NCBI GenBank assembly: GCA_000146045.2
Contig: BK006943.2
Coordinates: 256,001-320,000, forward strand
DNA: 64,000 nt
Source: TPA_inf: Saccharomyces
Taxonomy: Eukaryota
Reading direction: 5' to 3'
Shown: positions 51,971 to 54,637 of the stretch, in pieces
How the letters are laid out: the number at the start of each line of letters is the position of its first letter
Numbering within the stretch: the first letter of the stretch is position 1
Translations under genes and position numbers: made by a program
The notes under the pieces: model-generated
Seen by the model: only the letters and a program-made list of their open reading frames with translations
Databases searched by the model: none
Told to the model about the DNA's origin: nothing

Positions 51971-54637
51971 CTACCAAATGGAGTTAATTACTCCAAAGTG
52001 ATCCCGAACGAAGTTCCACTCTTGATCCAATGTCTCCTTTCTATATCTTCTTCTAATCATCGGAACGTTGTGCTTTATCGAGGTATCTTTCGCTGTATCG
52101 TACCAATTATCTATCCCACCCACGTTCTCCTCAAAGTAAGGCGCCTTTTTAACTCCAACGCCAATCCAATGAGCCTTGTACCAACCTTCATAGCCACTAG
52201 ATAGCACACTTGTTCTCGACAACTCGCACAAATCTGTTGGGTTCAGCAAGTAAATACTTGCTGCTACACTGTATTCTTCAATGAGAGGTTCTAGCGTGTA
52301 TGAACTATTGTAAAGAATCGATTTTGATGATAAAGAAATTTTTAGTCCCATCTTAAACATTTTCATGAAAGGATTTGTCTCATATGATCTTTGTTCGCCC
52401 ACAGTGATATCTCTAGAAGGATTGATTTTGGCTGTTTCCTGGTCTTTCAAATAATCATGTTCTAGAAGCACGTTTTTATTCTTCAAAAAGGTCGATTTTT
52501 GCGAATTCAGTAATGAAACAGATGATAATGGCGCAGCTAAAATGGGTATTTGAAAGAGATAAAATAAATATTGAATCATTGTTGCAGTATCCCAAAGCGG
52601 TTCTACCTGTAGCAGACCACCATTACAAAGCAGTAAGTTGCACACTAACGATTCAACTTGATCTGTAAAATATAAATCCACTCCAAATTGGGAAGTTCTG
52701 CTGGATAGTGGAGAACAATAATTTCTTAGGGTGATTGTATTTTGAAGATTTTGTGACCGCAGAAAATTAACTTTCGCTAAACTTTTATAAATATAATACA
52801 TGTAATGCGCAACAGTTGGATTGTCACCCTGTGCTGTCCAAAATTTTGGCTTACAATTCATATCAGTAAATTCTTTCCAGTAATATTCATCCGACTCTTT
52901 AATGACCAGATCCATAGAACACACATTTGATAAAAAAAACTGCAGACCAATGATATCAGTATTTACAGATGAATCTATTGGTAACTGCTCCTTTTCCAGA
53001 GTGAATAAAGGATTGAAGATAAGATCCAAAAACTCCTGGAAATTTGACACGACATTTTCCTTGAATAGTTTGGGAAAAATCCTGGCAATTTGTATATTCC
53101 AGCGGATATTATACGATACTAGCTTCCATCGTAGCAACCATTGAGAAAATTTCTTGTACCAGTCTTCACCACTGGAATAGAATTGAAAATTAACTGATAC
53201 TTGGGCCAATTGGTACTTTGATTTTTCGAGGATATGAATAACGTATTTTATGAAAATTTCTGCTAGGTACTCACCTTCAATGAAATTATCAAACTCCAGA
53301 AACACTTTGGCTAATAGGTAAAACCTCATTTCTTTGCCGACCAACTTTGCTACTTTGTTAGGAGTTAGATGGTAATCTATTAGGTAAATATTTCTATACC
53401 AATCCAAGAATTCATCATCAATCAATTTCAACCCAATCGCAATGGGTTGGTCATTAGAAGAACAACCAAACTGAAAAATGTCTCTCAAACTGAGTTTCCT
53501 TGACGTTTCCGGGTCTTGATAAACTATCCTTTCAGGTTCTAAATTTATTTTCTCCCATATATATTCACTCAATTGACGTTGAGAAATACAACCACTTAAA
53601 GACAAGTCTCGATCTACCTTACGAGAATTATAAAAATCTCTGTAGGGAACATTTTTATTAGCTAAAATTTCTTTCTTAGAGTTTAGGTACTGAAACAATT
53701 CAAATTTATCTAATAAATAAGATAATCGCTTTCGTGAAACCTCGTTGAATTTATGAGATTGGATTAACTCTATTATGTATGCAAAATCATCCCTAAATTC
53801 TTGAAACGTAGGCACATCTGTTAAAAATTCTTCCTCTAGTGACTCCTCCTTACTAGAATAAGGTGAAAGTGGGTTTTGCGTATTTTCCTGATTACTTAAA
53901 TGGTAAATGTATTGTTTTTTGTAATCCTCTAAATCGAAATATTCACCGGTGTATGGTACTTTTATATTTCCTTTTCCTTTCAAACCAGATTTTGTGTAGT
54001 AGTAGTAGTGATCGGTAAAGTAACTTGGGTAATAGTAGCCATGGCGGTGCGGTGTAGCGGCTCCGGTCCCAGTACTGTCTCCATCGTCATTTAAGTCAGA
54101 GTCAGAGGGATCTTGGAATCGTTTATCGTCTTCAAATCTCCAAAACTTTGGCAGTGGTTTTGGGTATAAAAACCACTTTTCAGTGTCATTTTTTATGTTT
54201 GAAATGCCATCTTGTTTGGAAGCAGCAATGTATCTTTTTCTCATTTGAGAAACCAATTCAAACGGATTAATGAAAAGATCTTTAGTTTCTTCACCCGTTT
54301 TCAGATTTGAGGGCGTGTACGATGAGACAAAGCTGTCACTTTCTCCATTTCCATAATGATGGGAAACTGAAGGAAGTGGATCAATTTTGTTTTCTTCGTC
54401 TTCAAGATCGAAAAACATAGGTGAACCTAAAACCATTTGCCTGTCAAATTCCGTGGGCAAAGAAATCATATCCATATCATCGACTGATATTTCCTTCTGT
54501 TTCAAAACAGATGGGGAGACATCACCGTCATTCTCTGACAAGACCCTGGCTTCTTTATTCTTCGTCTCATTAGGCTTAGTAACAGAATTTTGATATTCGT
54601 CAAAGAGTAACGAGGGCCTTCTCTCTACCGCCTGCAT
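51971..54637 (-). CDS. YJL070C: AMP-deaminase-like protein of the metallo-dependent hydrolase superfamily. The catalytic motif is degenerate, so it is probably non-catalytic. 888 aa.
   Basis: The C-terminal third aligns by eye to the AMP deaminase catalytic domain (…[34 protein letters not shown]…). The invariant SLSTDDP motif reads SLSSKSI here. Confidence 0.88.
   Translation of the reverse strand: [888 protein letters not shown]

Follow-up and report, generated by a model that had tools for sequence, protein, structure and literature searches.

The minus-strand gene YJL070C lies in a 64,000-nucleotide stretch of Saccharomyces DNA (contig BK006943.2, positions 256,001 to 320,000), hereafter called the window. 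It raises the question of why a yeast should maintain an AMP deaminase homolog whose catalytic signature has degenerated. A first-pass annotation of the window, made from the sequence alone, had recognized this reading frame and suggested that it encodes a pseudo-enzyme. The 888-residue product indeed matches an S. cerevisiae protein at 100% identity (UniRef cluster including 'K7_Yjl070cp'), and its orthologs carry the UniRef label 'Inactive deaminase YJL070C'. Its pseudo-enzyme status is already known: public annotation records AMP deaminase homology without the catalytic residues. According to SGD and a genetic study of 2009, these residues are reportedly missing, YJL070C is said not to rescue an aah1 ade8 amd1 his1 mutant, and its overexpression on adenine is said to lower GDP and GTP. 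A literature search on AMP deaminase and pseudoenzyme returned nothing relevant, and most mentions of YJL070C are in passing. Since inactivity is on record, it is a minor discovery; what is added here is a full map of the lost residues, evidence for remodelling of the pocket, a clade-specific N-terminal motif and the misnaming of Phaffomycetaceae orthologs. The features of the gene are collected in Table 1.

Table 1. Features of YJL070C, with positions in the window.
Feature	Residues	Position	Strand	Description and evidence
YJL070C ORF		51971..54637	-	888 aa, dead AMP deaminase paralog; protein identity, PF19326 (E = 4.6e-87)
N-terminal linear motif	50-75	54413..54490	-	disordered region; clade-specific
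Pre-domain block	155-166	54140..54175	-	near-invariant Y158, P159, P161, L162, P163, K164, W166; confidently modelled
AMP-deaminase-homologous (beta/alpha)8 domain	269-882	51992..53833	-	BLASTP against Amd1, HMMER against 8hu6 and 2a3l, AF2, Foldseek, dN/dS
Former beta1 HxH zinc motif		53585..53620	-	Amd1 has KVDTHVHHSACM; H to D344 and H to S346 in YJL070C
Remodelled substrate loop		53381..53422	-	HRFDKFNxKYNP in AMPD; F463 to Y414, Y467 kept as Y418, invariant Arg deleted
Former zinc-His/catalytic-Glu motif		52703..52729	-	LRNYCSPLS, against LRPHCGEAG in Amd1; H to Y640, E to P643
Former catalytic-His segment		52592..52621	-	G--ISHGILL in Amd1; H to V678; E679 and W682 new and clade-conserved
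Insertion of ~40 aa	711-750	52388..52507	-	clade-specific, predicted disordered; splits the AMPD PLSNN/LF loop
Former SLSTDDP motif	768-774	52316..52336	-	SLSSKSI; zinc-ligand Asp to K772, catalytic Asp to S773

The homology of YJL070C to AMP deaminases (AMPD) is far beyond chance. Yeast Amd1 aligns with it at 30% identity over 633 columns (BLASTP, E = 6e-64), and HMMER comparison with human AMPD2 (8hu6) and Arabidopsis AMPD (2a3l) gave E values of 6e-61 and 3e-57, respectively. The protein belongs to PF19326, with 293.3 bits (E = 4.6e-87) for a Pfam gathering threshold of 27 bits; Amd1 reaches 1077 bits. The match had initially been placed in the C-terminal third of the protein, but it spans residues ~269-882, i.e. 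~70% of YJL070C, with a weak extension back to residues ~121-170, and the match of a true AMPD (P0102) begins at query residue 121. Moreover, the string first quoted as 'Amd1' is an exact match to a fish AMPD (P0207, Sinocyclocheilus), from which yeast Amd1 (P0250) differs. Both slips leave the earlier conclusion unchanged.

Two further family models gave a different result. On the TIGR01429 equivalog (EC 3.5.4.6), with a curated cut-off of 726.3 bits for the whole-protein score, YJL070C obtained 267.5 bits versus 959.2 for Amd1. The adenosine/AMP deaminase signature domain PF00962, expected over the C-terminal catalytic half, was not detected in YJL070C at E <= 1, whereas Amd1 scored 35.6 bits for a threshold of 27 bits. 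In precomputed Pfam lists, PF00962 occurs in every listed AMD1 protein and in none of the dead-clade proteins described below. Of 91 AMPD-invariant columns, YJL070C keeps 36, including D576 and Y418, which correspond to D598 and Y467 in Arabidopsis AMPD (AtAMPD).

The zinc ligands of AtAMPD are H391, H393, H659 and D736, with E662 and H681 as putative catalytic residues, and in PfAMPD alanine at any corresponding zinc or catalytic position abolishes function (bioRxiv 10.1101/447789). When the second Asp (D737) is included, all seven positions are replaced in YJL070C. The series H, H, H, E, H, D, D, represented in Amd1 by H362, H364, H630, E633, H652, D707 and D708, reads D344, S346, Y640, P643, V678, K772 and S773. 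Thus, none of the four zinc ligands is present (D344, S346, Y640, K772), and P643, V678 and S773 occupy the places of the catalytic Glu, the His and the second Asp. The first-pass annotation had noticed SLSSKSI opposite SLSTDDP and the loss of the acidic catalytic residues. Translation recovered SLSSKSI, and its pairing with SLSTDDP agrees in the HMMER, MAFFT and BLASTP alignments; both Asp are gone, and the loss extends to every other zinc and catalytic position. YJL070C therefore corresponds to the definition of a pseudo-enzyme, a homolog of an active enzyme whose essential catalytic residues are gone (7/7). Since all four zinc ligands and the three catalytic residues are lost, alignment and modelling indicate that the protein should be unable to bind the catalytic zinc as AMPD does or to deaminate AMP.

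The AMPD fold, which had been supposed to be kept, is retained in the predicted structure. The AF2 model has a pTM of 0.78 and a core pLDDT of ~90, mostly above 85 over the AMPD domain and from 87 to 96 at residues 130-160. It superposes on solved AMPD structures with the same (beta/alpha)8 architecture: in Foldseek searches, the match to 8hu6 had an E value of 1.7e-32 and a TM score of 0.72-0.75 (normalised by target length), and that to 2a3l a TM score of 0.71.

Dead orthologs were found in Saccharomycetaceae, Saccharomycodaceae, Phaffomycetaceae and Babjeviella. They form a single group with 100% bootstrap, which includes the proteins of Saccharomycodes, Hanseniaspora, Cyberlindnera, Wickerhamomyces and Babjeviella, and a separate intact AMD1 is also present in each named species checked. 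YJL070C belongs to this 'Inactive deaminase YJL070C/YBR284W' clade by grouping, synteny and N-terminal motif. None of the seven catalytic or zinc positions is kept in 48 of the 59 clade members and at most two are kept in any, these counts being read from pairwise alignments, as an HxH/HxxE/DD regular-expression screen (150 representative hits) over-called losses in fragments. Budding-yeast AMD1 proteins, by comparison, carry HHHEHDD in 120 cases out of 120. Some Phaffomycetaceae orthologs are named 'AMP deaminase' or 'AMD1' in UniRef/NCBI; these dead proteins are misnamed as active enzymes, through automatic transfer.

Identity among dead proteins is 31-63%, versus 73-90% among AMD1 proteins; the dead clade evolves much faster. 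Such divergence is not obviously expected of a tight obligate partner of Amd1, and it counts against a mechanism acting through that enzyme. Neighbour-joining trees recovered a monophyletic dead clade that joins the fungal AMPDs with 80% bootstrap; its placement as sister to all of them is probably a long-branch distortion; for this reason, dating of the duplication from these trees was abandoned. The Babjeviella protein is placed with 58% support.

Four Saccharomyces species have an intact reading frame. Among these, the dN/dS of the whole gene amounts to 0.046-0.071 and that of the AMPD domain to ~0.04, compared with 0.035-0.05 for the neighbour UTP18 and 0.065-0.07 for ARG2, the values being approximate because dS exceeds 1. 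YJL070C is thus under strong purifying selection, and the pseudogene alternative fails. The gene order UTP18-YJL070C-ARG2-PSF2 is found in three further Saccharomyces genomes, ARG2 not being called at the S. arboricola locus. The promoter was scanned for Bas1/Gcn4, CDRE, MSE, PAC and RRPE motifs. No TGACTC was present and the sole conserved site was one STRE at -100, so that the promoter motifs do not connect the gene to the purine regulon. The missing Bas1/Gcn4 TGACTC site also counts against a role tied to Amd1 or to purine balance.

Several features are specific to the dead clade. Within the N-terminal linear motif, D53, D54, D56, T62, F64, D65, Q67, G71, P73 and M74 are conserved in at least 90% of members, and a strict regular expression for this motif retrieves 46 of 65 dead proteins and none of 120 AMD1 proteins. 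A FFAT-like reading of 'MFFDLEDEE' was considered and rejected, as the FF is found in Saccharomyces only and other genera have YLDP. The insertion in the catalytic domain corresponds to a gap in Amd1 and AMPD2; pLDDT falls below 50 at residues 706-751 and dN is higher there.

Altogether, the loss of all seven residues, the retained fold and the strong purifying selection support the pseudo-enzyme reading. We consider that YJL070C is a dead AMPD paralog kept for a role other than deamination, with a probability of about 0.8. It derives from an ancient duplicate of a fungal AMPD gene that kept the (beta/alpha)8 fold while losing the four zinc ligands and the three catalytic residues. The gene was then retained across budding-yeast evolution, a second duplication giving rise to YBR284W. 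As judged from dN/dS and phylogenetic spread, selection has kept the protein through budding-yeast evolution, and therefore it must do something non-enzymatic. It would most likely act through protein-protein contacts, combining an AMPD-type body with the clade-specific N-terminal motif. The likeliest role would be to regulate or dominantly modulate Amd1 as its partner, or else to act in this way on the balance between adenine and guanine nucleotides. As a specific mechanism, regulation of Amd1 or of purine balance is proposed only tentatively, at less than even odds.

The best-surviving alternative is a non-catalytic scaffold whose function lies apart from Amd1 and purines, for example in the response to stress, in cell adhesion or at membrane contacts; the N-terminal motif and other surfaces would then simply be carried by the AMPD fold as a stable body. 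One of the alleles behind an evolved clumping oscillator, a phenotype unrelated to purines, is yjl070c-S188G, which acts as loss of function. Restoring the wild-type gene leads to constitutive clumps, although this phenotype varied between replicates. The promoter, with its conserved STRE and without purine-regulon motifs, points in the same direction, as do the calcineurin/Crz1 and high-pH regulation of the paralog YBR284W, the absence of the N-terminal motif from AMD1 and the quick divergence of the clade relative to AMD1. On the other hand, YJL070C still has the ribose-contact aromatics Y414 and Y418 together with many structural residues of AMPD, and the reported drop in GDP and GTP on overexpression points to purine metabolism. 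A scaffold of this kind is possible but, on balance, doubtful.

The former active site must also be considered. Column statistics over 60 clade sequences showed that 33 AMPD-invariant columns are lost and that about a dozen of these hold new conserved residues: Y414 (60/60), L411, Q479, S481 and S706 (58 each), S773 (57), D483, E679 and W682 (55 each), E448 and F486 (54 each) and S663 (52). The old pocket thus appears to have been remodelled and not left to drift. The new polar residues conserved there could point to binding of a different ligand, an observation that counts against a pure protein-protein role.

A neo-functionalised protein, in which the remodelled site would be a new ligand-binding or metal-independent catalytic site, fits the conservation of D/N344, E448, Q479, S481, D483, E679, S706, S773, Y414 and W682 (each in 52-60 of 60 sequences). 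It also fits the position of the new residues, which lie where the predicted barrel strands (340-346, 476-483, 636-640 and 767-769) reach their C-terminal ends, and the strong selection on the domain (dN/dS ~0.04). Metal-independent members of the amidohydrolase superfamily, such as LigI, do exist. However, four of the seven core catalytic positions vary within the clade: the third His is Y, S or N, the Glu is P, T or S, the catalytic His is A, G or S, and the first Asp is K, N, E or S. Bulky hydrophobic replacements (G to F486, L to W682, and H to L at 346 in most members) fit the filling of a cavity better than a new pocket. Moreover, E448 and S481 stand in place of aligned basic AMPD residues, and an Arg is missing altogether, so that, if these basic residues bind phosphate, nucleotide binding here would be unlikely. 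We therefore regard neo-functionalisation as an unlikely outcome. A related proposal is that Yjl070c and Ybr284w form a metabolite sensor of the ATP/GTP balance. A new small-molecule sensing or metal-independent catalytic site (D/N344, Y414, E448, Q479, S481, D483, E679, W682, S706 and S773, with the aligned AMPD-invariant basic residues turned acidic or neutral) would be coupled to the N-terminal motif. This too is speculative, with the odds well against it.

A functionless relic in decay might be suspected from the lost catalytic residues, and from a gene that is non-essential with few reported phenotypes. It is very improbable and effectively refuted already by the selection analysis, given the ORF intact in four Saccharomyces species at a dN/dS (0.05-0.07) equal to that of ARG2 and UTP18, orthologs kept across several yeast families, and 50 invariant columns in a 47-sequence clade alignment. 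Finally, a cryptic active AMP deaminase with ligands conserved elsewhere and missed through misalignment is scarcely credible: no support was found, the Phaffomycetaceae names being automatic transfers, the three independent alignment methods are concordant, the TIGR01429 cut-off is missed by ~460 bits, amd1 complementation reportedly fails, and a search for a substitute His cluster in the clade found none, H823 and H856 being the only His conserved in at least 90% of members and neither occupying a zinc-ligand position.

The dead paralog can be set beside several known proteins. The active AMP deaminase Amd1 (YML035C, P0250) has in common with YJL070C the PF19326 family and the predicted fold. 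YJL070C differs from it by a 40-aa disordered insertion, by a different N-terminus bearing its own motif and by an evolution several times faster. Structurally, YJL070C comes closest to human AMPD2 (8hu6) and Arabidopsis AMPD/FAC1 (2a3l), with TM scores of 0.71-0.75 and 29% identity over ~620 aligned columns. These two are active zinc enzymes, and their crystals were obtained with AMP or coformycin 5'-phosphate; YJL070C is without any zinc ligand. AMPD governs the balance of adenylates and guanylates, and in humans a deficiency of AMPD2 depletes GTP and thereby causes pontocerebellar hypoplasia. A non-catalytic modulator of the AMPD node, if real, would be relevant to purine homeostasis and to pseudo-enzyme research.

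The S. cerevisiae paralog YBR284W (P0089, UniProt P38150), listed as 'Inactive deaminase' in a table of a 2015 paper, is 47% identical to YJL070C over 617 aa. It carries the dead motifs of YJL070C (as KIDLNLLLSGC, LRSSCSP and SLSSESIL), and the N-terminal motif is common to both. At 797 aa it is nevertheless the shorter protein and diverges in its N-terminal region. Published work also describes a different regulation: YBR284W is among the targets of Crz1 and high pH, and uncapped telomeres induce it. The dead paralogs of Saccharomycodes, Hanseniaspora, Cyberlindnera, Wickerhamomyces and Babjeviella have, like YJL070C, lost six or seven of the seven catalytic positions, and many have the N-terminal D.I.L.T.FD.Q motif, but their identity to YJL070C is only 30-40%. 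Those of Phaffomycetaceae, unlike YJL070C, mostly keep the third His (N-G/D/T-H-S-N-N-K).

A last parallel comes from animals. CRMP/DPYSL proteins are dead dihydropyrimidinase homologs of the amidohydrolase superfamily in which the metal ligands are gone while the fold and the oligomeric state persist. Recruited as regulators that work through protein-protein contacts, they have known partners, tubulin among others; to our knowledge, Yjl070c has no known partner. CRMP/DPYSL constitute a separate family of independent origin, and the likeness to YJL070C is one of analogy.

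The AMP deaminase (AMPD) homology of YJL070C is, at the level of sequence, unambiguous. The protein matched Pfam PF19326 (E = 4.6e-87) and, in HMMER comparisons with PDB chains, human AMPD2 (8hu6, E = 6e-61) and Arabidopsis AMPD (2a3l, E = 3e-57). BLASTP against Amd1 (P0250), the active yeast enzyme, aligned query residues 269-882 in 633 columns, of which 30% were identical (E = 6e-64). The likeness described in the first-pass annotation is real, but it extends over ~70% of YJL070C and not only over the C-terminal third. The string quoted there as 'Amd1' is an exact match to a fish (Sinocyclocheilus) AMPD (P0207); yeast Amd1 reads [34 protein letters not shown]. 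YJL070C is a member of the AMPD homologous family (PF19326), with the fold in common. The TIGR01429 AMP-deaminase equivalog model gave 267.5 bits for YJL070C, against a cut-off of 726.3 and 959.2 bits for Amd1, and PF00962, which matches Amd1, had no match in YJL070C at E <= 1. Indeed, every functional mark of an AMPD that was tested is missing: equivalog score, zinc ligands, catalytic residues and PF00962.

An AlphaFold2 model built from the clade alignment shows YJL070C as a predicted folded protein (pTM 0.78; pLDDT ~90 over most of 270-705 and 752-883), with disorder predicted for residues 1-121, 180-225 and 706-751. Foldseek matched this model to human AMPD2 with AMP (8hu6, E = 1.7e-32, target-normalised TM 0.72-0.75 over ~620 columns) and to Arabidopsis AMPD (2a3l, TM 0.71), with adenosine deaminases far lower, in agreement with the earlier proposal that the AMPD fold is kept. 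Amidohydrolase active sites lie at the C-terminal strand ends of the barrel, and the replaced residues are found at these ends in the predicted strands (340-346, 476-483, 636-640 and 767-769).

In Arabidopsis AMPD (AtAMPD), the zinc ligands are H391, H393, H659 and D736 and the putative catalytic residues E662 and H681; in Plasmodium AMPD, alanine at any corresponding residue abolishes complementation in yeast (bioRxiv 10.1101/447789). AtAMPD numbering was obtained with an offset of 138 along the 2a3l chain, placing D736 and D737 at the two Asp of SLSTDDP. The zinc ligands H391, H393, H659 and D736 correspond to D344, S346, Y640 and K772 of YJL070C, and the catalytic E662, H681 and D737 to P643, V678 and S773 (H362, H364, H630, D707, E633, H652 and D708 in Amd1). 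The mapping was the same in three independent alignments: HMMER against PDB chains, MAFFT with 49 true AMPDs and BLASTP against Amd1. Thus both Asp of SLSTDDP, as first noticed by eye, and the other five residues are all replaced, with translated SLSSKSI aligning at SLSTDDP. The ligands are not conserved elsewhere either: in the 47-sequence clade alignment, the only His conserved at >=90%, H823 and H856, lie away from the ligand positions. YJL070C cannot coordinate the catalytic zinc as AMPDs do, and it lacks the catalytic acid/base residues.

This loss is shared by a whole clade. A word-indexed search found 59 members across Saccharomycetaceae, with the motifs missing from all; by pairwise alignment, 48 of the 59 kept none of the seven catalytic positions and no member kept more than two. 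The 120 AMD1 proteins retrieved from budding yeasts have HHHEHDD without exception. More remote dead relatives occur in Saccharomycodes ludwigii, Hanseniaspora osmophila, Cyberlindnera fabianii, C. jadinii, several Wickerhamomyces species and Babjeviella inositovora, and a separate intact AMD1 was retrieved in several of these, including S. ludwigii, C. fabianii and B. inositovora. In a neighbour-joining tree (588 columns), the dead proteins formed one group in 100% of bootstraps and joined fungal AMPDs in 80%, an attachment point that is untrustworthy because of the long branch. For the same species pairs, identity was 31-63% among dead proteins versus 73-90% among AMD1 proteins; the dead proteins diverge much faster.

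The Phaffomycetaceae dead paralogs P0091/P0232 (C. fabianii), P0378 (C. jadinii), P0373 (Wickerhamomyces ciferrii), P0376 and P0382 read N-(G/D/T)-H-S-N-N-K or similar at the seven positions, and NCBI and UniRef call them 'AMP deaminase', 'AMD1' or 'AMP deaminase 2'. C. fabianii, W. ciferrii, W. mucosus and W. pijperi each yielded an intact AMD1 as well. The active-enzyme names look like an erroneous transfer of annotation.

Outside fungi, AMPD homologs without most catalytic residues were also retrieved: P0135 (Nonionella stella), P0105/P0113/P0146/P0157/P0212 and P0144/P0150/P0162/P0169/P0194/P0200. They read NHQEYDN, NRSEYDS or N.QEHN, and many are 1300-7575 aa long. AMPD domains seem to have gone dead on more than one occasion in eukaryotic evolution.

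Features of YJL070C and its locus. Coordinates are those of the window.
Feature	Position	Strand	Basis or remark
YJL070C ORF, 888 codons	51971..54637	(-)	ORF call in window
N-terminal linear motif (I/L)xxDDxDM(I/V)xLxTxFDxQMxxGSPM, residues 50-75	54413-54490	(-)	clade alignment; predicted disorder
Tyr-rich low-complexity stretch [16 protein letters not shown], residues 199-214	53996-54043	(-)	low model confidence
Pre-domain block [12 protein letters not shown]			clade alignment and AlphaFold2; confidently modelled
Predicted disordered ~40-aa insertion, residues 711-750	52388-52507	(-)	splits otherwise conserved AMPD 'PLSNN-LF' loop
SLSSKSI, residues 768-774	52316-52336	(-)	translation
Single STRE-like AGGGG	54733-54737	(-)	~-100 from YJL070C ATG, in short 284-bp promoter
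574-aa flanking ORF, ARG2 type	50132..51856	(+)	orthologs with NAT domain PF04768, as in ARG2
594-aa flanking ORF, UTP18-like	54922..56706	(-)	WD40 domain

The ORF product is 100% identical to an S. cerevisiae protein, whose cluster at 90% identity contains entries named 'K7_Yjl070cp' and 'metallo-dependent hydrolase superfamily protein'. S. cerevisiae strains carry 887-aa and 888-aa versions (P0001 cluster), a one-codon length polymorphism, the window encoding the 888-aa version. The neighbourhood is the UTP18-YJL070C-ARG2 arrangement. A WD40 gene flanks the ortholog in S. arboricola, S. kudriavzevii and S. pastorianus/eubayanus, and in S. kudriavzevii and S. pastorianus a NAT gene also flanks, followed by PSF2; the ARG2-type gene is absent from the genes called at the S. 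arboricola locus, gene order being otherwise kept in the three genomes.

Three features are specific to the dead clade: the N-terminal motif, the 711-750 insertion and the pre-domain block. Ten positions of the N-terminal motif are conserved at >=90%, and its strict pattern matched 46 of 65 dead proteins, with Cyberlindnera and Saccharomycodaceae proteins among them, and none of the 120 AMD1 proteins. A FFAT-like reading, made by eye, of the MFFDLEDEE that follows in Saccharomyces was rejected, the FF not being conserved in other genera. The 711-750 insertion evolves faster (dN 0.16-0.20) than the rest of the AMPD domain.

We consider YJL070C to be a dead paralog of AMPD that has been retained for some role other than deamination (probability about 0.8). 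It would act non-catalytically, most likely through protein contacts made by its surviving AMPD-type body and by the N-terminal motif, and these contacts may modulate Amd1 or the adenine/guanine nucleotide balance; this last step is tentative. YJL070C reportedly does not rescue an aah1 ade8 amd1 his1 strain, and its overexpression with adenine is said to lower GDP and GTP; the purine link comes mainly from these results, attributed to SGD and Saint-Marc et al. 2009. A scaffold unrelated to purines is somewhat less likely. In its favour, and against a purine link, a published phenotype concerns clumping, and the promoter scan found no Bas1/Gcn4 TGACTC sites, only the STRE, which the four Saccharomyces species compared all have between -100 and -106.

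The old active site has been rebuilt. Of the 91 columns that are >=94% invariant among the 49 true AMPDs, 36 are retained in the dead clade, 33 are lost and 22 are mixed. Among those retained are D576, equivalent to AtAMPD D598, whose contact in the enzyme is H659, and Y418, equivalent to the ribose-contacting Y467. Core positions vary at the third His (Y/S/N), the Glu (P/T/S), the catalytic His (A/G/S) and the first Asp (K/N/E/S), and are fixed in a new identity at 344 (D/N) and S773 (57/60). About a dozen other lost positions are also fixed among the 60 sequences: Y414 (60), L411, Q479, S481 and S706 (58 each), D483, E679 and W682 (55 each), E448 and F486 (54 each) and S663 (52). Where AMPDs have the loop HRFDKFNxKYNP, the dead clade has IDDxFLEWYxxxYL, the Arg being deleted, and at 448 and 481 an invariant Lys and an invariant Arg have given way to Glu and Ser, respectively. 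Thus, rather than merely drifting, the region underwent remodelling and has since been kept constant. The bulk of some replacements (G to F, L to W, H to L or Y) suggests that the cavity may be filled, and the loss of basic residues would speak against the old site binding a nucleotide phosphate, should these residues contact it. A new ligand-binding or catalytic site is improbable.

Nei-Gojobori dN/dS for the whole gene was 0.067, 0.071 and 0.046 against the S. arboricola, S. kudriavzevii and S. eubayanus-type orthologs (~0.04 for the AMPD domain, 0.13-0.15 for the N-terminal 270 residues), values that are approximate since dS > 1, the dN values being low in themselves. The neighbours UTP18 and ARG2 gave 0.035-0.05 and 0.065-0.07. 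These values show that YJL070C is under selection; that it is a relic gene is very improbable, and a cryptic deaminase, given the replaced residues, is scarcely credible.

SGD reportedly describes YJL070C as lacking key catalytic residues. Orthologs carry the UniRef name 'Inactive deaminase YJL070C', and YBR284W (P0089), the S. cerevisiae paralog with 47% identity over 617 aa, is an 'Inactive deaminase' in a table of a 2015 paper. The inactive-AMPD finding thus holds but is not new, and to it are modestly added the full residue map, the remodelling and selection evidence, the N-terminal motif, the spread beyond Saccharomycetaceae and the misnamed Phaffomycetaceae orthologs.
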